This document shows, in pieces, positions 2,346 through 42,243 of a DNA stretch of 64,000 bases. Under the pieces are notes generated by a model that ran no database searches, was not told where the DNA came from, and worked only from the letters and a program-made list of their open reading frames with translations. Within the stretch, counting starts at the first letter, position 1; each line of letters starts with the position of its first letter. The position numbers were made by a program, and so were the translations under genes. Source of the DNA: an uncultured Candidatus Binatia bacterium (lineage in GTDB: Bacteria; Desulfobacterota; Binatia; UBA9968; JAJDTQ01); contig OZ253480.1 in the NCBI GenBank assembly GCA_965261895.1, positions 549,560-613,559 on the forward strand, written 5' to 3'.

Positions 2346-2356
2346 TGGCTCCGAGA

Positions 2357-2504
2357 CATGGCGTCCTTCGACTTTGCTCGCCCTTCGACAAGCTCAGGAC
2401 TCGCTACGCTCAGGACGAACGGTTCTGGAAGTCATTTCCGTTCGTCCTGAGCCCTTCGACAAGGCTCAGGACAGGCGTAGCGAAGCGAAGTCGAAGGACG
2501 CCAT
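2357..2504. repeat. Family-B compound palindromic repeat (REP/MITE-like), copy B1
   Basis: catggcgtccttcgac...gctcaggacgaacgg / ccgttcgtcctgagc...gtcgaaggacgccatt. Arms and sub-motifs are shared with 17491-17594, 45129-45320, 51852-51995 and 57951-58194. It sits between convergent gene ends. Confidence 0.8.
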
Positions 2505-2524
2505 TCCAATTGATCACGAGTCCC

Positions 2525-3346: not shown

Positions 3347-3367
3347 TTTTCTCCCCTTCCCTTCGAT

Positions 3368-7129: not shown

Positions 7130-10100
7130 TCATGGCTCCTGCTCGACGTTCACGTTTTCCGTAAGCCCGAAATCGTCCAGGATCGCGTAGAGGGCCGGCA
7201 CCAGGAACAATACCTGAAAGGTCGCCGCGGCCAGGCCGAAGGCGAGGCTGGTCACCAGGGGCACCAGCACCTGGGCCTGGAGACTGGTCTCCGTGAGCAG
7301 CGGCAGCACCCCCGCCACCGTTGTCAAGGAAGTCAGCAGGATCGCGCGAAAGCGCTGCCGGGCGGCCCGGCACGCGGCCACGGCCGCCGGCTCGCCGCCG
7401 CGGCGATGGATCTTGATGAACGCCACCAGCACGATAGCGTTGTTGACCACGACCCCGGCCAGGGAGACGAATCCCACCATGCTGGGCATGGACAGCTCGA
7501 GACCCATCGCAACGTGTCCGATGACGACCCCCACGAGGCCCACGGGAATGGCGGCCATGACCACCAGCGGCTCGATGTAGCTGCGGAACTGAAAGCTCAG
7601 CAAGAGGAAGATGGCGCCCAGGCCGATGAGGAAATTGCGCTGCAGGGAGGCCCCGCTGGCCGCCAGCTCCCGGGTCTGGCCTTCGAGCTCCACGCTCAGG
7701 CCCGGGTACCGGGCCAACAGCTCGGGCAGGAACCGGGCCCGGGTATCGGCGATGATCTCCCCGGCGTTGGCCAGTTCCGAATCCAGATCGCCCTGAATGG
7801 TCACGGCGCGGCGTCCGTCGATGCGGTGGATGCGGCTGTAGCCCCGGTCCGAGTCCAGCGTCGCCACCGTGTACAGCGGCACCTGCTCCCCGGTGGGCAG
7901 GGTGACGGCGAACCGGGCCAGGTCCGCGAGGCTGTCCCGGTCCCGGCCGGACAGGCGGATGTCGATCTCGTAGTCCTCCGCGCCGACCTGGAACTCGCCG
8001 GCGTTGCGGCCGTGAAACGCCGCCCGCAGTTGCCGCGCCACCCGGGATGCGGTGAGGCCCAGGACGAGGGCGCCCTCGCGCAGGCGCACGCGCATCTCCG
8101 GCTTGCCGAGACGCAGATCGTCGGACAGATCGAACACCCCGCGATACCCGCGGAGCCACTCCAGCAGATCGGTGGAGGCCGCCTTCAACGCGCCCACGTC
8201 TTCCCCCATCAGACGGATGTCGATAGGCTTCCCGCCCGGCCCGATCTGTGGCTCGCCAAAGGTGAGCGAGATGACGTCCGGCAGCGCCCCCACTTCGGCC
8301 CGCCACCGGCCCATGACGTCGTCCAGCGATACCTCGCGGGACTCGGAATCCACCAGGTCGACGATGACGGTGGCAAGATGTTCCCCGGACTCGTGGGCGT
8401 CCTGATTGCGGTTGAACTGAATCCCGACGTTCCGCACCAGATTTCCGCGCGCGAGCTCCTGGTCCACGGCGCGGATGGCCGCCACCACCTGAGCCACCAC
8501 CGCCTCGGTGCGGGCCAGCGGCGTCCCCTGCGACAGCAGCAATCGCGCCTCGATCACGTTGCCCTCGATATCCGGGAAGGCCCTGAACTTGAGCACGCCG
8601 CCGGCCATCACGGCCACGGAACCGAGCAGCAGGCTCGCGATCAGACCTACCGTCAGATAGCGCCAGGACACGGCCGCGTCCACCAGGCGCCCGACCCACG
8701 TCTCCGTGAAGCGCTCCAGGCCGTTGTCGAATCGCGTCCGAAGTCCTGGGCGCGCCGGACCGCCCGCGGTGCGCAGCGCTCCCATCAGGTGGTGCGGAAG
8801 GATCAAGAACGCCTCCACCAGGCTGAACGACAGCGTGAGGATCAGAATCACCGGCAAAACCTTCATCACCGCGCCGATCTCACCCCGGAGAAACGCCAGG
8901 GCGCCGAACACCGCGACGGTGGTGAGGAACGACGCCAGCACGCCCGGCGCCACCTCTTTCGTTCCCTCCACCGCCGCCTCCAGGGCGGTGTGTCCGGCGC
9001 GGCGCTGGCGCGCGATGTTCTCCGCGATGACGATGGCGTCGTCCATGATGAGGCCGACGGCGATGAGCAGCGCCACCATGGTGATCATGTCGAAGGAGTA
9101 GCCGATGGCCGCCATGCCGGCGATGGTCCCCATGAAGGCCACCGGCAAACCCGCCGCCACCCAGAACGAGTAGCGCAAACCGAAGAACATCCACATGACC
9201 AGGAACACCAGCCCGAGGCCCTGGATGCCGTTGCGCAACAGCATGGTCAGCCGGTCCCGCACGATGGAGGCCACGTCGCGGGTGATCTCGAACACCATGT
9301 CCGGCGGCGCCCGGCCGCGTTCCACGGCGAGATAGGCCCTGAGCGCATCGATGACATCGAGGGTGTCGTCCTGCCGGCCCTTTTCCACCGCCAGATAGGC
9401 GGCCCTTTGACCGTTGAAGAAGCTCTTGTCCTCATCGCGCTCGAAGCGGTCGGTAATGGTAGCGATGTCGCCGAGCCGAATGACCGCGCCGCTTTCCGAG
9501 GCCACCACCACCAGTCCTTCCAACGCGCGGGGCGTCCGCCGCTCATCATCGAATCGAATCAGCACCGTCGTGTCACGGGTCTCCACCGAGCCGGCGGGCA
9601 GCGCCAGACTCTGGGCCGCCACCGCGTCGGCCAGGTCGCCGACGCTGAGACCGAACTGGCGCATGGTGGGAGCCGGGACCTCGATGCGGATCTGGTGCTG
9701 GGAAAAGCCCTGGACGTGGACCTGAGCGACCCCGGGGATCGCCAGCAGATCGTCCTTCATGCGTTCCGCATAGGCCTTCAAACCCTCGGGCCGCAGGGGT
9801 CCCGCCACGGCGATGGAGGCGACGAAGTCCCTGCGCCCCAGTTGGCGCACCACCGGCGCCTCGGCCGCCGCCGGAAAGTCCTGGATGCCGTCGATCTCGG
9901 TCTTGACGTCGTTGAGGAAGCGGTCGATATCGCCTCCTTCCCGCATCACCAGCGTGGCCACGGCCAGCCCTTCCCGGGCCTCGCACCGGGTCTCCTCCCG
10001 ATTGTCGATGGCGTCCGCGACATCCTGTATCCGCAGACAGATGGCCTCTTCCACGTCCAGAGCCGCGGCCCCGGGAAACGGCACTCGAACCTCCACCGAA

Positions 10101-10222
10101 TCGGCGGGGATGTCGGGAAAGGTCTCCCGCTTGACGGTGCCGGTAAAGGCCAGCCCGACCATAAGAAACGCCAGCATCAGGAGGTTTGCGGCCGTGGGGT
10201 GGCCGGCGAAGAAACCGATCAT
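7130..10222 (-). CDS. RND efflux transporter permease (AcrB/CzcA superfamily)
   Basis: 1030 aa with 12-TM/large-loop architecture and conserved RND blocks (for example GVAQVHVQG and LIMDDAIVIAEN). Confidence 0.9.
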   Translation of the reverse strand: MIGFFAGHPTAANLLMLAFLMVGLAFTGTVKRETFPDIPADSVEVRVPFPGAAALDVEEAICLRIQDVADAIDNREETRCEAREGLAVATLVMREGGDIDRFLNDVKTEIDGIQDFPAAAEAPVVRQLGRRDFVASIAVAGPLRPEGLKAYAERMKDDLLAIPGVAQVHVQGFSQHQIRIEVPAPTMRQFGLSVGDLADAVAAQSLALPAGSVETRDTTVLIRFDDERRTPRALEGLVVVASESGAVIRLGDIATITDRFERDEDKSFFNGQRAAYLAVEKGRQDDTLDVIDALRAYLAVERGRAPPDMVFEITRDVASIVRDRLTMLLRNGIQGLGLVFLVMWMFFGLRYSFWVAAGLPVAFMGTIAGMAAIGYSFDMITMVALLIAVGLIMDDAIVIAENIARQRRAGHTALEAAVEGTKEVAPGVLASFLTTVAVFGALAFLRGEIGAVMKVLPVILILTLSFSLVEAFLILPHHLMGALRTAGGPARPGLRTRFDNGLERFTETWVGRLVDAAVSWRYLTVGLIASLLLGSVAVMAGGVLKFRAFPDIEGNVIEARLLLSQGTPLARTEAVVAQVVAAIRAVDQELARGNLVRNVGIQFNRNQDAHESGEHLATVIVDLVDSESREVSLDDVMGRWRAEVGALPDVISLTFGEPQIGPGGKPIDIRLMGEDVGALKAASTDLLEWLRGYRGVFDLSDDLRLGKPEMRVRLREGALVLGLTASRVARQLRAAFHGRNAGEFQVGAEDYEIDIRLSGRDRDSLADLARFAVTLPTGEQVPLYTVATLDSDRGYSRIHRIDGRRAVTIQGDLDSELANAGEIIADTRARFLPELLARYPGLSVELEGQTRELAASGASLQRNFLIGLGAIFLLLSFQFRSYIEPLVVMAAIPVGLVGVVIGHVAMGLELSMPSMVGFVSLAGVVVNNAIVLVAFIKIHRRGGEPAAVAACRAARQRFRAILLTSLTTVAGVLPLLTETSLQAQVLVPLVTSLAFGLAAATFQVLFLVPALYAILDDFGLTENVNVEQEP

Positions 10223-11589
10223 GGGACTTTCACTGCGGGCGTCGCCCCGCCGGCCTCGACCACCAGGTTCGCCTCCGCCGCCCGGTCCGCCACCGCTGCC
10301 AGACGCATGCCCTCGACGGCGAACGGCAAGTCCGAGATCACCACGCGCTCACCCGGCGCCAGCCCGGACCGCAGGACCACGAAGTTGGTCTGCACGAAGT
10401 CCACCTGGACTTCGCGAAAGTGCAGCCGTTCGTCAGAACCGGCCACGTAGACCTGGCTGCCCCGGAGGGCGGCTCGGGGAATCACCACCGCTCCGAGCCG
10501 GGGCGGTCCCCGAAGCTCGACCTCGACATACATGTTCTTGACCAGGGGAGGCCGCTGGCCTGCCGCCACCCGCCGATACGGCTGGTCCACGGCAACGATC
10601 ACGCCCGCGGTGCGGGTCCGTGGGTCCACGGTATCGCTCATCCGCGAGAAGCGGGCCGGCCATTCGATGCTGACGTCGCCGGTGCGCAGGCGCACGATGG
10701 CCTGGATGTCGACGATCTCGCTCAGACGCGGCATGACCGCACCAGGGTCCTGGGGCAGCTCGAAACCCGGCGGCAACAGCGTGAGCGCCCTGCCGATGGG
10801 AACCTGGGCGATGACCTCGGCAACGTCCAGGCTGTCCGCCTCCACCAGGATCTGACCCTTGGCGGCAAACTGGGCCAGCTCCACGTTCACCGCGGCAATG
10901 CGGCAGGTGAACGGCGCGGCGATGGTGGTACGGCTCAGGTTCCTCCGTGCCGTCTCCAACTGGGCGCGAAGCTGATCTCGCGCGGCCTCCTGCACCGCGC
11001 GCTCGGCGGGTAGCAGCGTGGCGGCGTTCCGCAGGTTCTGCACCACCTGCTCGCCGGCCAGCACCGAGCGCTCTTCCCGGTCCGCGTCGGACTGGGAGAC
11101 GGCACCGCGCTGCAGCAGCTCCCGGGTACGTTCAAGCTGCGTGCGGCCAAGGGCGACACTGCGTTCCTCGATGGCCAGCGATCGTCGGGTATTGACCGCG
11201 CGCGCCTCCAGCACCGCGATCTGGGCTTCCACCGCGCGAATGTTGGCTTCGATCTGGGCCACCGCGAGACGGTAGTCGGCCGGGTCGATACGCAACAGCT
11301 CCGTCCCCGCCGGGAGGATGGCGCCCCGCTGCAGCTCGGGGTGCCGGAAGATCACCGTACCGCTCACCTCCGCCACCGCCTCCCAGACCTTCCCCGGCTT
11401 GACGTTGCCGTAGCCCAGGGCCCGGGGCACGGCATCCACCGCCGCCGCCGGCACCGTGCGCACGGACGTCGTCCGTTCCTCGGGCGGGATGCGCTGGGGA
11501 CCCTGCCGAGCGTTCACCGCCCACAGCACCGCCGCCACGCCGAGGGCGATGGGCACCCAGATAAGAAGCTTCTTGCCGCGACCGGCCAT
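10219..11589 (-). CDS. RND efflux periplasmic adaptor (membrane fusion protein, HlyD family)
   Basis: 456 aa with N-terminal TM, coiled-coil hairpin region and beta-barrel signature. Overlaps the pump start by 4 nt. Confidence 0.85.
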   Translation of the reverse strand: MAGRGKKLLIWVPIALGVAAVLWAVNARQGPQRIPPEERTTSVRTVPAAAVDAVPRALGYGNVKPGKVWEAVAEVSGTVIFRHPELQRGAILPAGTELLRIDPADYRLAVAQIEANIRAVEAQIAVLEARAVNTRRSLAIEERSVALGRTQLERTRELLQRGAVSQSDADREERSVLAGEQVVQNLRNAATLLPAERAVQEAARDQLRAQLETARRNLSRTTIAAPFTCRIAAVNVELAQFAAKGQILVEADSLDVAEVIAQVPIGRALTLLPPGFELPQDPGAVMPRLSEIVDIQAIVRLRTGDVSIEWPARFSRMSDTVDPRTRTAGVIVAVDQPYRRVAAGQRPPLVKNMYVEVELRGPPRLGAVVIPRAALRGSQVYVAGSDERLHFREVQVDFVQTNFVVLRSGLAPGERVVISDLPFAVEGMRLAAVADRAAEANLVVEAGGATPAVKVP

Positions 11590-11640
11590 GCATCACCCCG
11601 CCTTGCGCTCTAACGGCCGGTATCGGCCAACAGCATGATC

Positions 11641-11880
11641 CGCACACGGGCGGGTTTGAAACCCGCCCCTACATCGGATGTCCGGTTCCCGCGACACAGA
11701 CTCCCAGGGACATTCTGATCAATTGCCGCGTCCGGGCGTGGTCGCACACGGGCGGGTTTGAAACCCGCCCCTACATCGGATGTCCGGTTCCCGCGGCACC
11801 GACTCCCAGGGACATTCTGATCAATTGCCGCGTCCGAGCGTGGCTGCTGTAGGGGCGGGTTTCAAACCCGCCCGTGCCCG
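11641..11880. repeat. Tandem 2 x 102-bp duplication carrying family-A hairpins, plus an inverted third hairpin
   Basis: Units at 11641-11742 and 11743-11844 are near identical. Each begins cgcacacGGGCGGGTTTGAAACCCGCCCctacatcggatgtccggttcccgcg. An inverted A copy follows at 11853-11873, then the hairpin gcatcgccgg/ccggcgatgc. Confidence 0.85.
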
Positions 11881-11954
11881 TTGTCGCGCCGCATCGCCGG
11901 CTGTAAACACCGGCGATGCGAAGCCGGACGGTGGCAAACAATCAGCGTGTCCCC

Positions 11955-12236
11955 CTAGATGGGCCCCAAGGGCCAAGGCAGATCGTCGATGGCATGTTGC
12001 AACAGACCCTCCGGAAGGTCCAACGTCATCTGCCAGGACAGGAACATCAGCATCAGGTCCGCCAGGACCGTCAGCAACGCCACCTGGGTCCAGCCCACCT
12101 TGGCTTCCCGCCGCAGGAACGCGATGAAGAACAGGTTGAGGGAGATGAAAAACCCGGTCAGGGCGGTTCTTACGCCACGGGAGGCGTGGTCTACATCAGC
12201 CCGAAGCTCGGGGCGCAGGTGGAGAAACCACAGCAC
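11955..12236 (-). CDS. Small hypothetical membrane protein (2 predicted TM helices)
   Basis: 93 aa, GTG start, strong G/C bias at third codon positions, two hydrophobic helices. No family recognised. Confidence 0.35.
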   Translation of the reverse strand: MLWFLHLRPELRADVDHASRGVRTALTGFFISLNLFFIAFLRREAKVGWTQVALLTVLADLMLMFLSWQMTLDLPEGLLQHAIDDLPWPLGPI

Positions 12237-12404
12237 CCGGTGCAGTTTGACCGATCACCGTGGCAATCACAACCGTTCGCCAGAATAGACCGGAGCGCGG
12301 CACGCTTTCTCCTGTCCGGACCCCGCTCCGCGCCGGTCAGGGTGGACACCGGCGATGAAAAGCTGCTAGCACGAGGGAATCTCGCAAGTGCCCGGAGGAC
12401 GTAG

Positions 12405-14676: not shown

Positions 14677-15912
14677 ACCCCGACCGCCTGGCTCGGACCG
14701 CGCGTGCTGCGCAACTTTCTCCTGTTGTACGGGAGCTCCCTGTTCTCGGGACTCGCCTGGGGCATGGTGCTGCCCACCATCCCGGTATTGGCCGGATACT
14801 TCGATATCTCCATGGGCGCCGCGGCCCAGACGGTCACGGCCTGGGCCACTGGCCGCTTCTGCGGCACCCCGGTGAGCGGCATCATGCTCGACCGGGTCGG
14901 GCCGCGGGTGATGATGGTCGGAGGCGCCGCTGTCACCGGGGTGGCCGCCATCGCCGCATTCCTGAGCCCCGCCTTCTCCGGATTGCTGGCCGCGCTGTTC
15001 GTCATCGGCGCGGCCGACGCAGTGTGGGCCATGGGGCGGGAGGTAACCGGCATCGACCTGACCGCCCAGAACCAGCGCGGTCGGGTCATGAGCGGCTTTC
15101 ACGGCGTGCACCACAGCGGAGTTACCCTCGGGCCACTGGTGGGCGGCTTCCTCACCGTGGCCGCGGGCTTCCGCACCGTATTCCTCGCCGGCGCCCTCGT
15201 CTCCGTGCTCGCCACCCTGTGCGGTCTGGCGGTGGACAAGCCGGCGGGCAGCGGCGCGACGCCGCGGACTCCCGCGAGGGCTGCGTCCAGGGGCTTCGGG
15301 CCGCGCCACTGGGTCGGACGCATCGTCGCCCTCTACCGCGAGGTGGAGCCGTCGCTGCGCCCGACCTACGCGGTCCTGGTCGTCGCCACCGGCGCCAGCC
15401 TGATGTTCCGGCTCACGCTCCAGAGCATGCTGCCGCTCTACGCCGGCGCGTACCTGGGCTTCACTCCCGTACAGGTGGGCGCGCTCTTCTCCATCTCCGG
15501 CGTGGTGGTCTTCTTCATGATCGTGCCCGCGGGCTTCGTGCTCGACAAGGTGGGCAGGAAATGGGCGACGGTCCCCAGCACCGTGATCCCGGCCGTGATC
15601 TTCCTGACCATCCCGCTGGCCGACACCTTCCTGCAATTGGCAGTGCTGCTATCGGTCCTCGGGATCGCCAACGGCCTCTCCTTGGGCTGCCTTGCCACTT
15701 CCACCTACGACGTAGCGCCGCAACACGTCCGCGGCCGCCTTCAGGCCATGCGCCGAACCCTCGCCGACCTGGCGGGTCTGGGCGCACCCCTGGCCGGAGG
15801 CATGCTCGCCAACGCGTTCCACCCCGGAGTCCCGTTTATCGCCCTGACCCCGATACTGTGGCTGTCGGCGATCCTGCTGGCCTTCGTGGGCAAGGAGACG
15901 CTGGAGCGTTAG
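14677..15912 (+). CDS. MFS transporter
   Basis: 12-TM MFS pattern. Start proposed at GTG 14677 with GGAAGGG SD; the raw ORF begins at 14566 and would overlap eamA by 59 nt. Confidence 0.7.
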   Translation, partial: TPTAWLGPRVLRNFLLLYGSSLFSGLAWGMVLPTIPVLAGYFDISMGAAAQTVTAWATGRFCGTPVSGIMLDRVGPRVMMVGGAAVTGVAAIAAFLSPAFSGLLAALFVIGAADAVWAMGREVTGIDLTAQNQRGRVMSGFHGVHHSGVTLGPLVGGFLTVAAGFRTVFLAGALVSVLATLCGLAVDKPAGSGATPRTPARAASRGFGPRHWVGRIVALYREVEPSLRPTYAVLVVATGASLMFRLTLQSMLPLYAGAYLGFTPVQVGALFSISGVVVFFMIVPAGFVLDKVGRKWATVPSTVIPAVIFLTIPLADTFLQLAVLLSVLGIANGLSLGCLATSTYDVAPQHVRGRLQAMRRTLADLAGLGAPLAGGMLANAFHPGVPFIALTPILWLSAILLAFVGKETLER

Positions 15913-16015
15913 TCAGGCGCTCTCGGGCGTCCCGCGGCATTCAAGGGCCTCACGGGATCGGAAAAAATGGTTCAACTGAGGGCGAAGCCCCTGGACCGCC
16001 CGTATTCCGGTTCGG

Positions 16016-16321
16016 TCAACTCCCGCTTTCCTCAAGGAAGGCATCATCCATATCCTGCTGGCCCAAAATACGGATGATCACGATTTCATCGGGGTCCACC
16101 CGGTAGTAGATCGAGTGGGATTGATAGACGCTACGGCGCAAACCGTCCCGGACATGCCCCACAGCCGGATAACGCAATGGCCTGTCCGCGAGTTGGCCGA
16201 AGCGTTCGACTATGCCGCGCTGGTAGTCCTGCGCTTGCTGCAGGCCAAATTTGTCGATGCCGAAATCGAAGATGCTGTCGAAGTCTTTGTCTGCGGCCTT
16301 GGTGAGCCTATAACTCCCCAT
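16016..16321 (-). CDS. parE: Type II toxin ParE/RelE family
   Basis: 101 aa. ...YRLTKAADKDFDSIFDFGIDKFGLQQAQDY... has ParE character. Overlaps the upstream antitoxin gene by 14 nt. Confidence 0.75.
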   Translation of the reverse strand: MGSYRLTKAADKDFDSIFDFGIDKFGLQQAQDYQRGIVERFGQLADRPLRYPAVGHVRDGLRRSVYQSHSIYYRVDPDEIVIIRILGQQDMDDAFLEESGS

Positions 16322-16565
16322 TCCGACGTTTTCTTTCGATCACCGCCTGCATGATGTCCTCCGGCATACGATCGCTCATGCCGCTCTCCTCGCCCTCGAT
16401 CAACGCGGCACGAATGGCCTTGATGCGGGTCTGCCGCTCTTCATCGCGCCGGATTAAATCACGGACGTACTCGCTGGCGTTACCGAAGTCTCCGGACCTG
16501 ATGCGCTCTTTGATCCAGGCTTCGTTTTTATGGGTAAGGCTGATGGTCTTCGGGAAGGTCGCCAC
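16308..16565 (-). CDS. parD: Type II antitoxin ParD family (RHH)
   Basis: 85 aa. SEYVRDLIRRDEERQ is typical of ParD. GTG start with GGAGG SD. Confidence 0.75.
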   Translation of the reverse strand: MATFPKTISLTHKNEAWIKERIRSGDFGNASEYVRDLIRRDEERQTRIKAIRAALIEGEESGMSDRMPEDIMQAVIERKRRNGEL

Positions 16566-16582
16566 AAGAGCCTCCAGGGTTG

Positions 16583-16617
16583 TATGATAAAATCATATTA
16601 CTTATGATTTTATCATA
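16583..16617. promoter_or_regulatory. AT-rich inverted repeat (putative parDE operator/promoter)
   Basis: TATGATAAAATCATA-ttact-TATGATTTTATCATA lies immediately upstream of parD in otherwise GC-rich DNA. Confidence 0.45.
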
Positions 16618-16680
16618 GTCTTTTGGCCGTGCCACCCGCGGCCCGCCCGTAGCCCTGTAGCGGGCATACCCCCAAACGCT

Positions 16681-17451
16681 TTACGAGTTCTCCTCCAGGC
16701 CGGCAGCGTCATCCGGTTCCGGACCGGCCTCTTCCAGTTGGTCGCGGAACCGTTCGGTGGCGGCCCAGGCCTCCTCGAACTGGCGCCCGTCGATGCGGCC
16801 CCGCATCAGTTCCACCCGGAGCAGCAGGAAATAGGTCTGGATCACGTCCTGGCGGCAGTACTCGTGGATCTCCGCCAGCCGGCCCTCTTCCCAGAACCCC
16901 TGGACCATGGAGCCGTCGATATCGCCCTTGCCGCGCAGGCCGATGAGCTTGCACAGGAGATCGAAGCCGCCGCGAATGCGGTTGACGCCGTGGTTGCCGA
17001 CAAAATCGTAGAGGTCGTAGTGGCCCTCCTCCGAGTACCGGTATCGGTGCCCGAACCGCTGGTTGAAGTAGCGCGGCGCCTGGCAGCGGTACTTGAGGGC
17101 GTGCAGTTCCAGCACCGGGAGGTCGAAGTTGCGCCCGTTGAAAGACACCAGCGTGCCCTTGAACCGTTCCACCCGCTCCCAGAAATCACGGACGATGGCC
17201 TCCTCGCTGTAGTCGTTGGCGCCGAGCGTCTCGACGTTCACCAGGACCGCGTCGTTGTTCACAATGCCCACCGCAATGGAGATCGGGACGTGGAAAGAGA
17301 TGGGGAGAAAGTCGCTGCCGCTTTCCGCTACCCGCTCGGCGCGGAGCCGCTCATAGGCCTCCCGGTCGGAGATGTCCTCTTTCGGGGCGTAAACCGATTT
17401 GACCAGGCTCTTGTCTATGCGGGTCTCGATATCGAAGACGACATACATCAT
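16681..17451 (-). CDS. 3'-5' exonuclease, PolB-exonuclease-like (DnaQ fold) family
   Basis: MMYVVFDIETR is the ExoI motif, followed by FNGRNFDLPVLE and YCRQDV (ExoIII-like). Start proposed at ATG 17451. The raw ORF's N-terminal extension to 17757 is translation of repeat B2. Confidence 0.7.
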   Translation of the reverse strand: MMYVVFDIETRIDKSLVKSVYAPKEDISDREAYERLRAERVAESGSDFLPISFHVPISIAVGIVNNDAVLVNVETLGANDYSEEAIVRDFWERVERFKGTLVSFNGRNFDLPVLELHALKYRCQAPRYFNQRFGHRYRYSEEGHYDLYDFVGNHGVNRIRGGFDLLCKLIGLRGKGDIDGSMVQGFWEEGRLAEIHEYCRQDVIQTYFLLLRVELMRGRIDGRQFEEAWAATERFRDQLEEAGPEPDDAAGLEENS

Positions 17452-22500: not shown

Positions 22501-22707
22501 GGGATGTGGACGTAACAGCCGTTTGAGGCGTCAGGGTTGGGCGTCCCTACAGGCGCCGGTTAAACCATCGTGGTGAAGGTCACCTTTCACGGTAGCGTGC
22601 ATAACACCGCGCGGTGGCTATTGCAACGAAAGAGTCATTTGAGGCTTATCAACTCCGAGATTGCAAATCGGCGGAAAGTATGGCTTGGCTAAAGGGGAGG
22701 TACTGGC

Positions 22708-22935
22708 ATGGTCCGGAGCAAAACGGCGATTCACAGGGACCCCGATATTCTCGGCGGAACGACCGTGTTCGTTGGGACGAGAGTCCCTCTCCAGGCTCTC
22801 CTCGACTACTTGAAGGCGGATCGGCCACTTGCAGACTTCCTGGACGACTATCCTACCGTGACTCACGACCAGGCAATAGCTGTACTGGAGCAGGCGAAGG
22901 ACCTGCTGGTGTCTGATGCGCTTGCTACTCGATGA
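22708..22935 (+). CDS. DUF433-domain protein (putative antitoxin)
   Basis: DPDILGGTTVFVGTRVPLQALLDYL is the DUF433 signature. Confidence 0.7.
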   Translation: MVRSKTAIHRDPDILGGTTVFVGTRVPLQALLDYLKADRPLADFLDDYPTVTHDQAIAVLEQAKDLLVSDALATR

Positions 22936-23152
22936 GTGCCTCCCGCGGCGGCTGAGGCGCGAGCCTGTAGGCTACGACGTACAGACAGTACCCGAGATGG
23001 GATGGGCCGGCCTCAAAAACGGCCAGCTTCTGCACTTGGCTGCCTCTCACTTCGACGTTTTCCTTACCGTGGACGGGAGCATCGAACATCAACAATGTCT
23101 CGACGCTCGGGATCTGCGTAGTCACCCTCCGAGCCAAGAGCAACGATATTGA
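22916..23152 (+). CDS. DUF5615 (Mut7-C/PIN-like) protein, putative toxin partner of DUF433
   Basis: MRLLLDECLPRRL...GYDV is the DUF5615 N-terminal hallmark. 20-nt overlap with the DUF433 gene. Confidence 0.6.
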   Translation: MRLLLDECLPRRLRREPVGYDVQTVPEMGWAGLKNGQLLHLAASHFDVFLTVDGSIEHQQCLDARDLRSHPPSQEQRY

Positions 23153-23337
23153 AGCGCTCTTACCTCTGATGCCCGCAGCGTCTCCCGAACCAAACTCGTC
23201 TTGCCCATCCGACGTTGCGCGGTCAGCAGCGTATGGGTCCCCTCCCGGATTCGCTCCGTGAGAGCTCTGATCTCGGCGTCTCGATCAAAGAACCGATCCC
23301 CCTCGACCCAGTTGGATCCGGCTTTCCTGAGTGTCAT
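23122..23337 (-). pseudogene. N-terminal fragment of an AAA/Arch-type ATPase (truncated)
   Basis: FFDRDAEIRAL...LLTAQRRMGKTSL is Walker-A-containing N-terminus. The frame terminates after ~70 aa, whereas family members are 350-450 aa. Confidence 0.35.
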
Positions 23338-23506
23338 GACCCAATCTCCAACGAAATGGTTGCCAACGAAATGGTTGCCAACCATTTAGTGGAAAATAGG
23401 ACGAGTGTTCAAGGGATTACCAGCAGCTTTGTTGCCAACTGAAACGTTGGCAGTCTAGTGGTTCAGTCAACCATTAACCGCCGGAACGCGATGAATTCAT
23501 CCGGAG

Positions 23507-24277
23507 TCAGATCCACGTCTGAGGATGCTCTTCGAGAATGCGTTCACTCAGGGGAGCGAAGTAGCCCCGGCTCGTGGTGAAGAATCGAAGCAATCGGCCA
23601 TCCGCGTCCGGCGTCAAAACGGAGCGTATCCAAACATTCATTTGGTCCGGATCGTCAATGTCTCGCGACTGTTCGACGAGGGCATTCCGCCATTTCCTCC
23701 TCGCCAACCGGAGGCGTTCGACGTTCAGGTTAAGGAGTTTGAGGGTGCGGCTCATCCGCTCAGATGGAAACCCCGCAGATTCGCAGGCGCCCTCATCCGT
23801 TTCGATCAATCCGTCGTCACCCACCCTCGTGAGCGACGGCAAATCTGGTAGTGTCCGTGGGTCAACGAAAGCGGAATCGTTCCGATTCCCCTTTGCCTGG
23901 CCACAACTCATGTTGTCCGCTATGGGTTCCCGAAAATGACCCTCACCCTCGTCTTCCTCCTCGTCAAGGGCTCGCACCGTACCGCCCATACAACAGGCGA
24001 CCATGTTGGTAATGTCGAACGCCCTGTCGTCGGCGCTCCTCGGGATCACATGCTCAACCTGACGGCGCGATCTGTTCAGACGACCCGGTTCGTAGATGTC
24101 GATTTCGCAATAGGTGCAAAGTCCGTGTTGGTTTCGGGCCAGAGCATCCTGGAGTTCGCGGCGCTCAGCACGCCATTTGCGAGAGTGGAGTCTACTCCAG
24201 GTCGCATTGTCGCCCTCGGCACAGCGAAATTCGGCAAGGCCGGGTGTGACGTCCTTCAATTCCCTGATGCGCTTCAT
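23507..24277 (-). CDS. ptuB: Septu PtuB-like HNH endonuclease (TIGR02646-like)
   Basis: 256 aa. HNH core CTYCE...VEHVIPRS plus CCMGG. ATGA overlap with ptuA. Confidence 0.7.
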   Translation of the reverse strand: MKRIRELKDVTPGLAEFRCAEGDNATWSRLHSRKWRAERRELQDALARNQHGLCTYCEIDIYEPGRLNRSRRQVEHVIPRSADDRAFDITNMVACCMGGTVRALDEEEDEGEGHFREPIADNMSCGQAKGNRNDSAFVDPRTLPDLPSLTRVGDDGLIETDEGACESAGFPSERMSRTLKLLNLNVERLRLARRKWRNALVEQSRDIDDPDQMNVWIRSVLTPDADGRLLRFFTTSRGYFAPLSERILEEHPQTWI

Positions 24278-25551
24278 TTCGACTCCGCCATCCGCTTGAA
24301 CAACTTGCGTTGCTTGATTTCAAGGTCGGCACTGGCAAGGGCGGGGTCCTCGGGAGACAGATCATCGAGAGTCTGCCGTAAGGCCCGAGCTTCTTCGGAT
24401 TCACCCCGACCCTCGCTCACCACACGCCCGTACCGGTCCAATGCCTCGGTGAAGCGGTTGTCTGGCCGCTCCTTCACGCCCATCACCACCGATAGCACGT
24501 CACCCGCTTCGGCGCCGTAGGTCCACCCACTTGGAGCCCCGGCAACGATGCGGCCATCCTTCCGGGCGAGTTCCACAATGTGTTTCGGCTCCACGGTGGT
24601 CAGCACCTGTGGGCTGTGGGTAGAAACAATGAACTGTGCGTTCGGAAACGTCCGCATGAGGTCGTCGAGGATCCGCTGCTGCCACGACGGATGCAGGTGC
24701 AACTCGATCTCGTCGATCAGGACAACCGCTTCGGAGCGGAGCGGGTAGTCAAGGTGCGGGTTCCCCTGAGCCATTCGCCACGCCAGATCGGCCGTGAGAG
24801 CAAGCACCGCGCGATAACCGCCGCTCAACTGGTCGAGTGCCAGCTTCTCGCTGTTCTGTCCCGTATCGAGGTTCACCACGAACCGAAGGGGATTGACCTC
24901 GATATGAGGATCGGACACATCGTCAAGCATGGACGAGATTGCATCACGGACAGTGGACAGATCCCTCAGTCGATAATCGAAGTCACGCCGCCTGTTCTGT
25001 TCTCTCAACTCTTCGTTTTCCTTGAAGTAAAACCACTGAAAGAGCGTCCGGAAATTCGTTCGGGCGGAAAGTGCCCCCTCCAACGCAGCAAACCGCAGAA
25101 ACTCCTTCTTGAACCCGCGTCTTCGCTGCGGCAAATCAAACACGACTCGGTCTGTATCGTAGAAGGCGACAATAGGCAGGTCGATCGGCGGTCCTTCACG
25201 GTCGGCGTCAACCAGCTTGCCGGTCTGCTCCCTCAACCACTCCAATCCACGCACTCCCGCCAGCGCCCTTCCCTGCTTCGTTCGAATCCGTCTCCAGGCA
25301 TGTCCATCGATTGGTGTTAGCGCGACCCGTACCGATTGCGCACCCTCACGGAGATCCGTTTTGCGGAAGTTTATCCCCGAGACACCGGGGAGTCGGGTAG
25401 GAATAGCGCCGAGCCCCACCGCGACCGCGCTCAACACGCTGGTCTTGCCGTGCGCGTTGGCGCCGTGCAGTACAGTCAACTGTGGATCAAGCGATAGGGT
25501 GAGCTTCTCGATGGCGCGAAAATTCTCGATCTCGACGGCTTTCAGCTTCAT
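24274..25551 (-). CDS. ptuA: Septu PtuA-like ABC-type (AAA_15/AAA_21) ATPase
   Basis: Walker A GANAHGKTSVL, ABC signature LSGGYRAVLAL, Walker B VVLIDEIELHLHP, H-loop STHSP. GGAGGGA SD. Confidence 0.75.
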   Translation of the reverse strand: MKLKAVEIENFRAIEKLTLSLDPQLTVLHGANAHGKTSVLSAVAVGLGAIPTRLPGVSGINFRKTDLREGAQSVRVALTPIDGHAWRRIRTKQGRALAGVRGLEWLREQTGKLVDADREGPPIDLPIVAFYDTDRVVFDLPQRRRGFKKEFLRFAALEGALSARTNFRTLFQWFYFKENEELREQNRRRDFDYRLRDLSTVRDAISSMLDDVSDPHIEVNPLRFVVNLDTGQNSEKLALDQLSGGYRAVLALTADLAWRMAQGNPHLDYPLRSEAVVLIDEIELHLHPSWQQRILDDLMRTFPNAQFIVSTHSPQVLTTVEPKHIVELARKDGRIVAGAPSGWTYGAEAGDVLSVVMGVKERPDNRFTEALDRYGRVVSEGRGESEEARALRQTLDDLSPEDPALASADLEIKQRKLFKRMAESK

Positions 25552-25624
25552 GATCCCATCCCTCCAACTCGTTGGACAGGCAGGCGGCAGAGTCTAATGA
25601 GTATTCCGTTGGTAGGTCATGCCG

Positions 25625-25790
25625 CTAGTGTGGTGTCTCACAAATACGCTTATGAAGATGCGAGGGCATTTTGGTTGTCGGCAAGGCGCGATGACGAGCA
25701 GTGGCCGTTACCACGCGAGGAAGAGCAACGCAGCCGACGGCCAAAAGGACCCGCAGATTCATAAGCGTATTTGTGAGACACCACACTAGT
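25625..25790. mobile_element. MITE-like element (family D) with 32-bp perfect terminal inverted repeats
   Basis: ctagtgtggtgtctcacaaatacgcttatgaa ... ttcataagcgtatttgtgagacaccacactag flank a ~100-bp core. The core and left arm recur at 53245-53314; a partial arm recurs at 5565-5584. Confidence 0.6.
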
Positions 25791-25826
25791 ATCCTGTTTA
25801 TCACGTCCTGCTGGTTTGGTTGAGCC

Positions 25827-26153
25827 GTGGTACCCATTGTAACCCGTTACGTGACATGTAACACTGACTGTGCCGTGATCAAGGGCTTCAGGCACAAAGG
25901 GCTACAAACATTCTTCGAGACCGGCAGCAAGAAAGGCATCCAGCCCAAGCATGCCAACCACCTCCGGGATATCTTGGCCACATTGGATTCGGCCACCTCT
26001 CCCAAGGAGATACGAGCGCCGAACTTCCGTTTGCATCTCTCGGAGCCTCACCGCGCCAATGTCTGGTCCGTGTACGTCGCCAAGAACTGGAGTGTGGACT
26101 TTCGTTTCATCGGTGGGCATGCCGAAGCCGTCGACTATGTGGAGCACCACTAG
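25827..26153 (+). CDS. higB: Type II toxin HigB (RelE/ParE superfamily, killer protein)
   Basis: IKGFRHKGLQTFFETGSKKGIQPKHANHLRDILATLD is typical of HigB. Alternative GTG start at 25875. Confidence 0.75.
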   Translation: MVPIVTRYVTCNTDCAVIKGFRHKGLQTFFETGSKKGIQPKHANHLRDILATLDSATSPKEIRAPNFRLHLSEPHRANVWSVYVAKNWSVDFRFIGGHAEAVDYVEHH

Positions 26154-26202
26154 TCCCTGACCCGGCCTTTGGTCCCTGCTACGCCGCTTTCAGGAGACAG
26201 CC

Positions 26203-26490
26203 ATGAGAATGCACAACCCGCCTCATCCCGGCGGTGTACTGTTGAGACAGTGGATTTCACCTTTGGGTATCTCCATTACCCAGGCCGCCAAGCACCTCGG
26301 CATTTCCCGCAAGGCGCTTTCCGAGCTGGTTAACGAGCACACCGGGATCAGTCCCGAGATGGCAGTGAGGCTCTCCATAGCTCTGGGCACCAGTTCCGAG
26401 CTGTGGATGAACATGCAGTCCAGTTATGACTTGTGGCACGCCGAACGGCGCAGGAAGGAGCTGCGAGTCACGTCCATCGTCGCGGCGTAG
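26203..26490 (+). CDS. higA: Type II antitoxin HigA (XRE-family HTH)
   Basis: [40 protein letters not shown] is the HigA HTH. Confidence 0.8.
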
Positions 26491-26494
26491 GGTC

Positions 26495-26686
26495 TCACCG
26501 CTTCGGCTCCGTCAGCAGGAACCGCAGTGCCGTCAGCACCCGGCGCGGGTGCTTGCGGTGCATCGCCATGCCGAGCCAGTAAGCGGCCTCCCCACGTCCC
26601 ATGGCCTCGATGCCCTCGGCTACGGCACGCATGTTATCGCAGCTTTGTATGGGGGCGAGGGTGCGGAACTTAACAAAACGACTCAT
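26495..26686 (-). CDS. Hypothetical small protein
   Basis: 63 aa, G/C-rich third codon positions, divergent from the DUF1778 gene. No family recognised. Confidence 0.3.
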   Translation of the reverse strand: MSRFVKFRTLAPIQSCDNMRAVAEGIEAMGRGEAAYWLGMAMHRKHPRRVLTALRFLLTEPKR

Positions 26687-26744
26687 TTTAGTCCTTTATG
26701 TCATTTGGGCTAACTTCACGTAGTCCCATCGGAGGAACTCCGTC

Positions 26745-27011
26745 ATGAGTCGCTTATCCATAGAGTTGACCCCGGAGCAACACGAGCAACTCAGAACCAT
26801 CGCCGCACTGCATGGCCAGACCCTCAAGGACTACATCCTTGAGCGGACCCTGCCACACGTTCCGCAAAAGGAATCCCTTTCCGGAGACGGAACCCTGCTA
26901 CGGTTGGAAGCGTTTCTCAAGCCTCGGATAGCGCAAGCCACGCGCGGAGAAGTCGTCGAGGATTCCGTAAAGCAGATATTCGCCGCCGTCCGGAAAACTC
27001 CCAACGGATGA
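26745..27011 (+). CDS. RHH antitoxin, DUF1778/TacA-like (orphan, no GNAT toxin adjacent)
   Basis: MSRLSIELTPEQHEQLRTIAALHGQTLKDYILERTL is the DUF1778 hallmark. Confidence 0.55.
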   Translation: MSRLSIELTPEQHEQLRTIAALHGQTLKDYILERTLPHVPQKESLSGDGTLLRLEAFLKPRIAQATRGEVVEDSVKQIFAAVRKTPNG

Positions 27012-27021
27012 TGCCGGTTTG

Positions 27022-28065
27022 TCAGGGGACGGCGTTCAGAAAAGCCACGATTCTCTCGGCGATACGGTCGTGCAGCACAGCGCGCTCGGTCCGGCCCATC
27101 TCGCAAACCACCACATCGTCGGGCTCTTCAGCCTTCAGGATGGCTAGCCCCCGCTTGGTGCACTCTCCCAGGAAGTCGTAGTGACCTGCTTCAGGCAAGG
27201 GCACATACACCGATGTGGCCGGCAGAAGCTTCGCGGCGACCTCGGCCTCGCGAGCTGGATCCAGGAGCTCGGGAGTGCGGCCTGCGCCGAACACGAGAAC
27301 CGGAATCGCGATCCCGGCAAGGCTTTCCGGGGCTAGCGCCTGCACGCCGCCCGGGTCCATGGCGACGACTCCCGCCAGGCGCGGATCCCGGACATCCTGG
27401 GCCAGTTCGGCGTCCGTGACCTCCGGATCGAAAAGACCAAGGGTCTGCATGGCGCCGCAGGCAACGGCCTCGGGCGTGGTCTTGCAATAGGCCACCGGCC
27501 GCGGCCGGTCGAACCGCGCGCCGGCAGCAGCGAGAACCGTGTATCCCCCGAGGGAATGGCCCGCCGCGTAGATGCGGCTCGGATCGATGAGCCGAGCGGT
27601 CGCGGAGTCAGCCATCAGCGCATCGATCACGCGTCCGATGTCCAGCGGGCGTTCCCACAGCCGGCGCGACAACGTTCTGTCGCGGTTGAACGTCGTGGTG
27701 CCGGGGTGATCCACGGCGGCTGCGACAAATCCTGCTTGCGCAAGTCTGCGCGCAAGCCATAGCTGATTGAACCGGTGTCCGTACATGCCGTGCGAGAGAA
27801 TCACTAGCGGCATGGCCCCTGCCGATGCCGCCGCACCGGGACGGACCTGCTCGGCACGGAACACGGCATTGCCGCCAAGGGGTATGGCAGCAGGTCCGCC
27901 CGGCCTCGCCGGATAGATCACATACCCTTCGAGCGGTCGAGCCCCGGGGATGGAGAGAGGAACCATTCCGGGCGGTTCTGCGGCCGCAAACGCTGCGGGA
28001 ACCGTCAGAACCACCGCAAGGGCGCAAATCAGCAAGGCTGTCCATGTCGCGGCCAGCGTGCGCAC
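27022..28065 (-). CDS. Secreted alpha/beta hydrolase (dienelactone hydrolase / PAF-acetylhydrolase-like)
   Basis: GHSLGG nucleophile elbow and an N-terminal signal peptide (MRTLAATWTALLICALAVVLTVPAAFAA) if GTG 28065 is used. The raw ORF is fused in frame with upstream sequence. Confidence 0.65.
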   Translation of the reverse strand: MRTLAATWTALLICALAVVLTVPAAFAAAEPPGMVPLSIPGARPLEGYVIYPARPGGPAAIPLGGNAVFRAEQVRPGAAASAGAMPLVILSHGMYGHRFNQLWLARRLAQAGFVAAAVDHPGTTTFNRDRTLSRRLWERPLDIGRVIDALMADSATARLIDPSRIYAAGHSLGGYTVLAAAGARFDRPRPVAYCKTTPEAVACGAMQTLGLFDPEVTDAELAQDVRDPRLAGVVAMDPGGVQALAPESLAGIAIPVLVFGAGRTPELLDPAREAEVAAKLLPATSVYVPLPEAGHYDFLGECTKRGLAILKAEEPDDVVVCEMGRTERAVLHDRIAERIVAFLNAVP

Positions 28066-28070
28066 TGTTT

Positions 28071-29252
28071 TTACACCGCCTCCCGCTGCCTCCGGAACAA
28101 ACCCGCCACGCCACCGCCGATGACGAACGAGATCAGCCCCAGGGCGACGAATCCCCAGTGGAAGCCCAGGTCGGCAACCAGGAAGCCGGCGACGAGGGGG
28201 CCGAACATGCGGCCGATGGAGGTGCCGCCGCGGATGAGTCCCAGGGCGACTCCCTTGCTGGAGTCGTCGGCAAGTTGCAGGGCCAGGGTGGTGGAGCCCA
28301 CGTTGGACAGGCCGAACCCGGCGGTCATGAGGCACAGGGGCAGCAGCAGCGCGATGTAGCCCTGGCCGAAGACCTGGAGGACGAAGGCGGGGACCGTCAC
28401 GAAGACTCCCAGGAGAATCACCGTGCGGGTGCCGACGCGGTCGCAGAGCCAGCCGCCGCCCAGCCTTCCCGCAGTGTCGGCCAGGCGAGAGATGCTGACC
28501 ATCGTGCCGATGATGTCGAGGGTCATGCCCCGCCGCACCGCCAGGAACGGGAAGGCGATCCGGGTGACCCCGATGAGGCAGAGGAACGATTGAAAGATAG
28601 CCAGACAGGCGCCCAGGAAGGACGTCTGGGCCAGGAGCCCTTTGCCCACCCGCCACAGCGGCAGCGAGCCGCGCTCCACCGCCTTCTCCGTCCGATGCCC
28701 CCGGGCCAGCAGAATGAAGAACAATCCGGCAGTCTGGGGAACCGCCACCAGGAGAAACAGCTTGTCGAGGCCCCACCACTCGCCGACGAACCCGCCCAGG
28801 GCCGGGCCCAGGGCGAAGCCGAGCCCCAGGGCCGCGGCCACCTGCCCCTGGGCCTTTCCCTGCTGGTCCGGCGTGGATTGCACGAACACGATGCGGCGGA
28901 TGGCGAGACTGAACATGGCCTCGGTGAGGCCGAGGATGGTGAAGGCCACGAGAAACACCGTCAGGCTGTGCTGAAAGGCAAATCCCAGCAGGCTCGTCAC
29001 CAGCGCGATGAGCACCGACGCCAGCAGCAGAAAGCTCGAGCGAAAATAGGACGCCAGCGTGCCGGACACCACATCGGAACAGAGGGCGCCGACGCCGTTG
29101 ACCACCAGGGGTATGCCCACCACGGACACGGAAAATCCTCTGGCATTCATGTAGAACGGCGCCAGCATGGAGGCGCCGATGGCCCCCGAGGCCATGCAAA
29201 TGGCGGCCAGCGAATAGAGCAGATTGGATGAGATTCTGATCCGCAAACGCAT
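28071..29252 (-). CDS. MFS transporter
   Basis: 393 aa, 12 TM. Confidence 0.8.
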   Translation of the reverse strand: MRLRIRISSNLLYSLAAICMASGAIGASMLAPFYMNARGFSVSVVGIPLVVNGVGALCSDVVSGTLASYFRSSFLLLASVLIALVTSLLGFAFQHSLTVFLVAFTILGLTEAMFSLAIRRIVFVQSTPDQQGKAQGQVAAALGLGFALGPALGGFVGEWWGLDKLFLLVAVPQTAGLFFILLARGHRTEKAVERGSLPLWRVGKGLLAQTSFLGACLAIFQSFLCLIGVTRIAFPFLAVRRGMTLDIIGTMVSISRLADTAGRLGGGWLCDRVGTRTVILLGVFVTVPAFVLQVFGQGYIALLLPLCLMTAGFGLSNVGSTTLALQLADDSSKGVALGLIRGGTSIGRMFGPLVAGFLVADLGFHWGFVALGLISFVIGGGVAGLFRRQREAV

Positions 29253-40600: not shown

Positions 40601-40867
40601 ATGAGCAAGAGACGTAAACCCGTTCCCTCCTTTGAGAGTGAGGCGGAGGAACGGGCGTTCTGGGAAAGCCACGACTCCGCCGACTACGTGGATTGGAGCC
40701 TGGCCAAACGCGTCCGTTTCCCCAATCTCAAGCCCTCCAGCAAGGCCATTTCGTTGAGGTTGCCGGTAGACCTGCTGGAACGGATCAAGACCGCTGCCAA
40801 CAAGCGGGACGTTCCCTATCAGTCGCTGATCAAGATCTGGCTGTCGGAGAAGGTGGACGCTGGATAG
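40601..40867 (+). CDS. BrnA/CopG-like antitoxin (orphan, no brnT seen)
   Basis: FESEAEERAFWESHDSADYVDWS...FPNLKPS...ISLRLP...RDVPYQSLIKIWL is the BrnA signature. Confidence 0.65.
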   Translation: MSKRRKPVPSFESEAEERAFWESHDSADYVDWSLAKRVRFPNLKPSSKAISLRLPVDLLERIKTAANKRDVPYQSLIKIWLSEKVDAG

Positions 40868-41877: not shown

Positions 41878-42228
41878 CTAAACAGAACACCACGCTAGGA
41901 CTCCAACCCCCCGGCCCAAGACCTTCCTGCCTTTACGCCGTCGGCTGTTGTGGGTGTGGTCCGACCTTGATCCGGCCCTCCCCTTTTCGCGCTTGGCCAG
42001 ATTATAGGTGGTCTGTCGGCGCAACCAGAACTCGGCACTGGACCATCCAACCTTCTCCAGCCGAATGGCCATCTCCGGTGAAACGGCCGCGTGGCCGTTC
42101 AGTACACGCGAGAGTGTGTGACGAGCCACGCCCAGCATCTTCGCTGCTTCAGTAACGTTCAGGCCGAGTGGATCCAGACAGTTCTCCTTGATGCTACGGC
42201 CGGGATGGGGCGGATTTTTCATAGCCAT
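41878..42228 (-). CDS. higA: Type II antitoxin HigA (HTH)
   Basis: [41 protein letters not shown]. Confidence 0.75.
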
Positions 42229-42243
42229 GGCCTCTCCCTCTTC

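Follow-up and report, generated by a model that had tools for sequence, protein, structure and literature searches.

A predicted stand-alone type I Septu locus in an uncultured Binatia bacterium, very probably the remainder of an Hma-embedded array

Introduction

Septu defence systems pair an ABC-type ATPase, PtuA, with an HNH nuclease, PtuB. For E. coli Septu, two reports that summarise Li et al. 2024 (PMC12640716, PMC12819146) give a PtuA:PtuB stoichiometry of 6:2 and a nuclease that nicks DNA and that ATP inhibits. Homologous genes are found in retron type I-A, which is Septu type II in PADLOC nomenclature and has a non-coding RNA (ncRNA) along with a reverse transcriptase (RT) gene directly upstream of ptuA (PMC8565338). 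Retron-associated PtuA has gained extra elements for RT and msDNA binding (PMC12819146). Septu embedded in Hma systems has also been published (10.1101/2024.01.29.577857; PMC8565338), and Hma has since been reinterpreted as DUF499-centred BREX-related (BR) systems (PMC12839542). Here we describe a ptuA-ptuB pair in 64,000 nucleotides of contig OZ253480.1 (positions 549,560 to 613,559; assembly GCA_965261895.1) from an uncultured Candidatus Binatia bacterium. This whole stretch is called the window, and positions are those of the window unless a relative is named.

An earlier note on the window, made from its letters and a list of its open reading frames (ORFs), had called the pair Septu and placed it inside a lower-GC island rich in toxin-antitoxin genes. 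We conclude from sequence comparison that the locus is very probably a stand-alone type I Septu, predicted to act against phage, and that it is what remains of an Hma-embedded array after two deletions.

Assignment of the ptuA-ptuB pair

The ATPase and HNH ORFs lie exactly where the earlier note had put them (Table 1), and the ptuA stop and the ptuB start share the 4-nt ATGA overlap that it described, at 24274-24277, by which the two genes are coupled in translation. The genes follow one another on one strand, ptuA then ptuB, in an operonic arrangement, and a GGAGG Shine-Dalgarno sequence precedes the ptuA ATG. This adjacency is kept in nearly all of the 80 reference-genome loci recovered for the PtuA clade. 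The clade spans many phyla, its sources are mostly uncultured Latescibacterota, Gammaproteobacteria, Binatia, Dehalococcoidia and Acidobacteriota, and among reference genomes the best identity to the window PtuA is 65%.

Profile searches bear out the Septu call. The best PADLOC match of PtuA is PtuA1 (PDLC00311, 4.2e-120), with residues 1-417 aligned on profile positions 1-452 of 455, and that of PtuB is PtuB1 (PDLC00349, 6.1e-52), with residues 1-253 on positions 1-258 of 260; both matches are full length, and chance can be excluded as their cause. PADLOC lists 25 models for the ATPase; 24 are PtuA models and the remaining one is the retron model ATPase_I-A. Pfam AAA_15, AAA_21, AAA_23 and SMC_N all score above cutoff for PtuA, and NCBIfam TIGR02646 matches PtuB at 62 bits (cutoff 52.15), so the check with AAA_21 and TIGR02646 that had been proposed gives the same answer. 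Among PDB sequences, PtuA matches Septu PtuA (8ee4_A, 2.8e-40, residues 108-421 on 129-463) and the retron ATPases of Ec83 (2e-45) and Ec78. Searched with a profile built from the PtuB clade, the PDB sequences yield Septu PtuB (8ee7_C, 5.2e-16, 21-251 on 21-240, essentially the whole length) and the PtuB of Ec83 (1.6e-22).

The ATPase and HNH motifs quoted in the earlier note are all present. PtuA contains Walker A (GANAHGKTS at residue 30), the ABC signature (LSGGYRAV at 242), Walker B (VVLIDE at 276), LHLHP at 284 and the H-loop STHSP at 310, and PtuB contains CTYC at 54 and EHV at 75. In 23 PtuA sequences with 64-85% identity to the window protein, the invariant residues are G30, N32, G35, K36, T37 and S38 of Walker A, S243 and G245 of the signature, D280 and E281 of Walker B, H285, H287, and H312 of the H-loop. 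In 64 PtuB homologs (26-59% identity), conservation reaches 95% or more at C54, C57, E75, H76, N91, C96 and C125. Because H76, N91 and the cysteines are conserved on alignment, no catalytic histidine or metal ligand has been lost, a loss that the earlier note would have counted against its reading. PtuB H76 aligns to the histidine replaced by alanine in the mutant chain 9o4a_C, and PtuA D280/E281 align to the DE replaced by AA in 9o4a_A. In Septu Ec-B88, PtuA K43 and D316 and PtuB H75 and N91 are essential for defence by mutagenesis (PMC13096335), and in Ec78 defence is abolished by PtuA E396Q and by PtuB H57A (PMC12819146).

The ancestral Hma array and two deletions

The relatives compared here carry L-numbers. 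The closest of them are ENA metagenome contigs that encode close PtuA homologs, and five close relatives were recovered from metagenomes with the flanking FAD-binding dehydrogenase subunit as probe. In L123 and L121 PtuA is 96% identical to the window PtuA and the island DNA is about 92% identical. Their array begins with an alpha/beta hydrolase, ParD (minus), HmaC/DUF499 (1011 aa), DUF7680 (158 aa), HigA (minus) and PtuA, and continues with PtuB, ATPase_2 (424 aa), a STAND/TPR protein (1037 aa), HmaB/DUF1156 (987 aa) and an SNF2 helicase. Intact arrays are present in L121-L123. PADLOC labels the array genes HmaC and HmaB, and HmaA was matched on the helicases of L003 and L085, on which the BrxH and DrmD models outscore it. 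The Hma components of the relatives are a DUF499 ATPase (HmaC), a DUF1156 N6-methyltransferase (HmaB) and an SNF2 helicase fused to HKD (HmaA). The genes hmaC, hmaB and hmaA are all present in L121-L123, L002 and L003, and L084/L085 contain STAND-HmaB-HmaA. A profile scan of the whole 64 kb found no hmaA, hmaB or hmaC; the only remnants of the Hma array are fragments of DUF7680 and ATPase_2.

Base-level comparison locates the two deletions. Deletion 1 takes out L123 1085-4526, which comprises hmaC and the first ~101 codons of DUF7680, and at its junction sequence from upstream of hmaC meets DUF7680 codon ~102. The DNA at this scar is 88-92% identical to the DUF7680 3' end of L002 and L123. Deletion 2 starts at ATPase_2 codon ~55, takes out STAND, hmaB and hmaA, and stops within the 3' end of DUF5615, with a junction at ~23176 and GCG microhomology. 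The second scar has 76% nucleotide identity to the ATPase_2 5' end of L002 and a profile match of 4.3e-37 to positions 6-77 of 450; it is the piece that had been described as an AAA-ATPase fragment, which Pfam confirms. On the other side of the junction, DUF5615 has 78 aa in the window versus 110 aa in L001 and L085, and homology to those loci ends at 23176. A DUF433/DUF5615 pair had been reported at this site and both members are there, DUF5615 in C-terminally truncated form. The DUF7680 fragment at 26495-26686 and the Hma origin of the island had been overlooked.

Both deletions are common to the window, L124 and L125, and L125 encodes exactly the PtuA of the window. As read from sequence, the comparisons show the pair to have been acquired horizontally as Hma-embedded cargo at a hotspot, with two clean deletions and a transposable-element insertion following. 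The ptuA-ptuB pair is the only predicted defence unit left intact from this larger cluster.

Several further observations were made on the arrays. In L122 hmaB (9425-12387) and in L121 hmaC (506-3546) are split into two ORFs, the arrays being otherwise intact; these contigs have 3-8x long-read coverage, at which assembly frameshifts and real decay look the same. The ATPase_2 (~425 aa) and STAND/TPR (~1000-1150 aa) genes repeatedly accompany this ptuAB clade as a pair. They lie downstream of ptuB inside Hma in L002 (3702-8431), L121 (6770-11173), L122, L123 and L071, and upstream of ptuA outside Hma in L127-L130 (1-3804) and L020. PADLOC gives only weak matches (mad8, 5e-6), and the two may be an uncharacterised defence pair. 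A tandem direct repeat lies at 23344-23452, between ptuB and the ATPase_2 fragment. It consists of two copies of GTTGCCAACGAAATG and a third, diverged copy, is overlapped by a 27-nt inverted repeat, and gives the fragment ORF its odd N-terminus, VGNHFVGNHF. In the ancestral operon this region may have had a regulatory or terminator role.

The hotspot and the insertion upstream of ptuA

Synteny shows that the variable island is real. The earlier note had drawn it between 22708 and 27011; comparison with the sites in L084-L088 and L001 led us to set it at 22503-28075, which includes the alpha/beta-hydrolase gene. L087 has an empty site, in which window positions 22501 and 28076 lie 56 bp apart. 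L088 has ~260 bp at the hotspot and L086 only a complete parDE pair, and in L084/L085 the hotspot holds STAND-HmaB-HmaA-DUF5615-DUF433, colinear with L002. L001 has flanks 97-98% identical to those of the window and shares deletion 1. DUF5615 is intact there and a fragment of STAND is left, parD carries a frameshift, and higBA, the insertion upstream of ptuA and the last codons of the DUF7680 fragment are all missing. There are thus at least six occupancy states among close relatives, including the empty site, the ~260-bp site, parDE only, the full Hma and Septu array, and two different deletion derivatives.

The lower GC content that had been noted is confirmed: it is 0.594 in the island (5.6 kb) versus 0.656-0.669 in the flanks, the lowest of 234 sliding windows. 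GC at third codon positions is 0.65-0.70 in ptuAB versus 0.85-0.89 in the adjacent dehydrogenase genes. The island is rich in toxin-antitoxin genes, with higBA and parD, and 22503-28075 contains no integrase, as had been said, and no recognisable att site.

The MITE-like element of the earlier note is a perfectly palindromic miniature inverted-repeat transposable element (MITE) that has inserted upstream of ptuA, 76 bp from the start codon. It has 47-nt inverted arms and an RNA fold z-score of -10. The empty site in L124 reads GGATAC-TA-GCGGCATG, and the window reads GGATAC-TA-(MITE)-TA-GCGGCATG; L123 has a related MITE-empty site. The insertion site is CTAG, and TA duplications at such sites are characteristic of IS630/Tc1-mariner-type elements. 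A partial copy (half of the element, ~70 bp) lies at 53240-53313, upstream of a gene at 53438. The palindrome was also considered as a retron-like ncRNA; the TA duplication, the empty sites in L123 and L124 and the dispersed half copy led us to reject this.

Selection and autonomy

For ptuA the ratio of nonsynonymous to synonymous substitution rates (dN/dS) is 0.14-0.23 overall, with values of 0.14 versus L124 (36 synonymous and 16 nonsynonymous changes), 0.17 versus L123 and 0.18 versus L002. Since L124 has both deletions too, the value of 0.14 points to ongoing constraint; by this measure ptuA is under purifying selection even between deletion-sharing strains. For ptuB the ratio is 0.24-0.29 versus L123 and L002.

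The association with Hma was surveyed in 82 clade loci, the 80 reference-genome loci together with L002 and L003, which were screened with profiles made from the L002 and L003 proteins. Full Hma is present in 34 loci and fragments only in 8; 30 have no Hma within an upstream flank of at least 5 kb, and in 10 the flanks are too short. Of the 72 loci whose upstream flank reaches 5 kb or more, 30 (~40%) thus lack Hma genes. Because of these stand-alone loci and the purifying selection on ptuA, we infer that ptuAB probably still functions autonomously.

A mechanism can be proposed from homologs (PMC12640716, PMC12819146, PMC13096335). PtuA would oligomerise, with six PtuA to two PtuB as in E. coli Septu, and PtuB would be held through PtuA's C-terminal extension and its own C-terminal domain. 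ATP binding would keep the nuclease off until phage infection releases it. The released nuclease might then nick DNA, cut tRNA-Tyr in the variable loop, or both, and phage replication would stop at the cost of host growth, as in abortive infection.

Alternative explanations

Several points weigh against a working, autonomous Septu, and most of them would fit a pair that is intact but silent, a relic that is no longer translationally coupled, has lost its upstream promoter along with the Hma host, and is heading to pseudogenisation. The surroundings upstream of ptuA are no longer the native ones: in L002 ptuA overlaps the DUF7680 stop, and here two deletions flank the pair and the MITE stands close to ptuA. 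A crude sigma-70 scan of 23300-26000 found no promoter, although it covers consensus sites only and the consensus may not suit a high-GC host. The neighbours DUF5615, DUF7680 and ATPase_2 are fragments. In L001, where parD is also frameshifted, ptuB breaks off right after EHVIP, at codon ~78, and Septu is therefore dispensable in this lineage. The dN/dS of ptuB is 0.75 versus L124, the closest deletion-sharing relative, a value from just 14 changes; ptuB could be under relaxed constraint. The structure predictions are of low confidence and too poor for active-site geometry, and both the substrate (DNA or tRNA) and the trigger vary among characterised Septu homologs. Nevertheless neither ORF is shortened and no catalytic residue is missing, ptuA is constrained between two strains that bear the deletions, the 74-bp native leader with its GGAGG is kept, and the clade includes many stand-alone loci. 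We therefore regard a silent relic as unlikely and an autonomous type I Septu as the better reading.

The identity of the proteins could also be questioned, since the NCBIfam Ec78 PtuA/PtuB and PADLOC ATPase_I-A/HNH_I-A models match significantly, the best PDB sequence matches include the ATPase and HNH protein of retron Ec83, and ptuA is closely preceded by a highly structured palindrome. These would suit the effector module of a type I-A retron, controlled by a nearby RT and msDNA. However, no RT ORF lies between 22503 and 28075, where every ORF is otherwise assigned. Rfam gave no match at gathering thresholds, and relaxing to E<=5 brought up no retron msr, the single match at that level being a below-threshold chance match to mir-650 inside ptuA; no tRNA was found. 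The curated retron models fall below their cutoffs, NF041760 at 273 bits versus 500 with an alignment confined to the C-terminal half of PtuA (residues 179-416) and NF041761 at 72 versus 150, and PtuA1 outscores ATPase_I-A by 400 bits to 285. PtuA has 425 aa versus 540-550 aa in retron PtuA, and the palindrome is the MITE, missing in L123/L124 and repeated elsewhere in the window. Because there is neither RT nor retron RNA and PtuA has no retron-type extensions, the pair is assigned to stand-alone Septu and the retron reading is effectively refuted. Another ABC-ATPase defence family (Gabija/OLD, PARIS AriA, an AbiEii-like type IV toxin-antitoxin system or one of the Hma-embedded candidate systems HEC-01 to HEC-04) is very improbable. 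It is suggested by the Pfam annotation of AAA_21 as a putative AbiEii toxin, by weak PDB matches to AriA, OLD and GajA, and by the ancestral Hma context, in which HEC ABC-ATPase systems are common (10.1101/2024.01.29.577857). Those PDB matches span only ~50 residues around Walker B, at 1e-4 to 5e-7 versus 1e-40 for PtuA, the partner is a TIGR02646-family HNH protein and not a TOPRIM, NERD or PIN protein, and the PADLOC models listed for the ATPase name PtuA or, once, the retron ATPase. The earlier note had allowed that an OLD-family or retron pair might score better; among the PADLOC models neither does.

DUF7680 and the Hma context

DUF7680 (PF24728, ~159 aa) directly follows the hmaC/DUF499 stop in Hma loci, often overlapping it, whatever the cargo. 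Among the clade loci 37 of 43 DUF7680 matches adjoin the end of DUF499, some of them several kilobases away from ptuA. DUF7680 homologs picked regardless of Septu also lie directly after hmaC, in L126 without cargo and in L127-L134 with a GmrSD/ABC-ATPase cassette as cargo. Because it adjoins hmaC/DUF499 independently of ptuA, DUF7680 is a gene linked to Hma. Its homologs number 2,873, the top matches being 75-97% identical. PADLOC has no model for it, and the searched literature does not mention it.

A DUF7680::PtuA fusion call (P0036) and the ATGA coupling in L002 had prompted the idea that DUF7680 is a third Septu gene. This was rejected on the same adjacency to DUF499, on the 30 ptuAB loci without DUF7680, and on its position after hmaC with other cargo or none.

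In Type-2 BR systems a standalone DUF3780 gene is described at this position, together with an HKD-helicase (PMC12839542). DUF7680 and DUF3780 show no link in sequence, even with Pfam searched at E<=10. A low-confidence model of DUF7680 has 4 strands and 5 helices, the same element count as in the published description of DUF3780. We put forward, tentatively and with rather less than even confidence, the joint proposal that Septu cargo outlives Hma under purifying selection and that DUF7680 is an unrecognised and unusually conserved core gene, the fourth, of a large Hma/BR subtype. If this were true, the lasting unit on which selection acts at such hotspots would be the embedded cassette and not the host system. 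As an Hma-linked gene ignored by current defence-finder models, DUF7680 could improve Hma/BR annotation.

Neighbouring genes

The higBA pair that the earlier note had placed beside ptuAB is confirmed by Pfam. Both genes are present in the window, L124 and L125, and neither in L001. In the intact arrays a HigA-like HTH gene without higB lies on the opposite strand between DUF7680 and ptuA (L121 4028-4315, L122 2302-2589, L123 4707-4994), with 272 bp of higB missing relative to the window.

The antitoxin described as an orphan DUF1778 gene is indeed an orphan antitoxin, and Pfam assigns it to ParD. L086 has a homologous ParD followed by a 103-aa ParE-like ORF, and because this complete parDE occupies the hotspot there, the ParD of the window appears to have been orphaned by loss of ParE. 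The alpha/beta hydrolase is called as a 263-aa gene in L001 and is absent from the empty or near-empty sites of L086-L088.

Further out, Pfam confirms the parDE and second higBA loci that had been listed. The parDE genes lie in an insertion of ~816 bp (15911-16726), whose flanks are ~40 bp apart in L085 and L086. The gene reported as BrnA-like is an antitoxin, for which Pfam gives the CopG_antitoxin family. After it comes a 287-aa ORF (40911-41774) that matches no Pfam family and may be an unrecognised toxin partner.

Table 1. Coordinates of the ptuAB locus, the surrounding island, outlying toxin-antitoxin genes and full DUF7680 genes of relatives
Feature	Position	Strand	Description
Variable hotspot (island)	22503-28075		Between the FAD-binding dehydrogenase subunit gene and MFS transporter genes
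DUF433	22708-22935	plus	Pfam 9.6e-15; left edge of island
DUF5615/PIN-like	22916-23152	plus	C-terminally truncated; Pfam 2.2e-5, profile positions 1-55/110
Deletion scar 2, ATPase_2/STAND-type 5' fragment	23122-23385	minus	Weak Pfam matches to ATPase_2, AAA_16 and nSTAND1
ptuB	23507-24277	minus	256 aa, intact Septu HNH (beta-beta-alpha-metal) nuclease
ptuA	24274-25551	minus	425 aa, intact Septu ABC-type ATPase
Native ptuA leader with ribosome-binding site	25552-25625	minus	74 bp; L001, L123 and L124 are colinear with it as far as the point of MITE insertion
Palindromic MITE	25628-25786		159 bp; TA duplication at 25626-27 and 25787-88
HigB	25827-26153	plus	Pfam HigB-like_toxin 4.6e-16; divergent from ptuAB
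HigA	26203-26490	plus	Pfam HTH_3 1.7e-9; divergent from ptuAB
Deletion scar 1, DUF7680 3' fragment	26495-26686	minus	Pfam DUF7680 2.5e-21, profile positions 87-141/141; chimeric 63-aa ORF
Orphan parD antitoxin	26745-27011	plus	Pfam ParD PF09386 4.7e-27; weak secondary match to DUF1778/TacA, 0.0016
Alpha/beta-hydrolase gene	27022-27813	minus	Pfam Hydrolase_4, Peptidase_S9, DLH; host-like GC 0.664
parDE	ParE 16016-16321, ParD 16308-16565		Pfam
CopG_antitoxin	40601-40867		Pfam PF12441, 1e-35
Second HigA/HigB	41878-42552		Pfam
Full DUF7680 genes of relatives	L123 4225-4701; L002 979-1479; L126-L134 9001-9480		

Comparison with known systems

The Hma-relic context, the occupancy states, the TA duplication of the MITE and the DUF7680 link go beyond the earlier note; they are descriptive additions and not surprising. 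They provide a worked natural example, with junctions at base resolution, of an Hma system with embedded cargo eroding at a chromosomal hotspot, and the embedded Septu is the intact survivor among the population variants of that hotspot. The pair itself is a further case of type I Septu, a well-characterised kind, and requires no new biology.

Retron type I-A or Septu type II (Retron-Eco7/Ec78 and Retron-Eco4/Ec83) has homologous PtuA and PtuB effectors, and Ec83 is the best single-sequence PDB match. Unlike these retrons, the locus has no RT and no msr-msd ncRNA, its PtuA has no counterpart of ~120 extra residues, and the retron models score below cutoff. Gabija, OLD and PARIS differ in that the locus has no TOPRIM partner and no full-length similarity to GajA, OLD or AriA.

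In Hma systems with embedded Septu, L121-L123, L002, L003 and 34 clade loci have the order hmaC-DUF7680-[ptuA-ptuB ...]-hmaB-hmaA, as published, whereas the window has no hmaA, hmaB or hmaC and a 57-codon DUF7680 fragment is left. Among BREX-related systems these loci are Type-2-like, with an HKD-helicase; the difference from Type-2 is that the small gene after hmaC is DUF7680 here and DUF3780 in the published description.

The closest likeness is to the type I Septu of E. coli (8EE4/8EE7/8EEA; Septu Ec-B88). As there, the genes are co-oriented and overlapping, an ABC ATPase is combined with a TIGR02646 HNH protein, and there is no RT; the alignments also span PtuA's C-terminal extension and PtuB's C-terminal domain, which are the interface-forming regions. 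The proteins differ from those of E. coli in their low sequence identity (3e-40 for PtuA and 5e-16 for the PtuB clade profile) and in the length of PtuA, which is 425 aa in the window and 465 aa in 8EE4.

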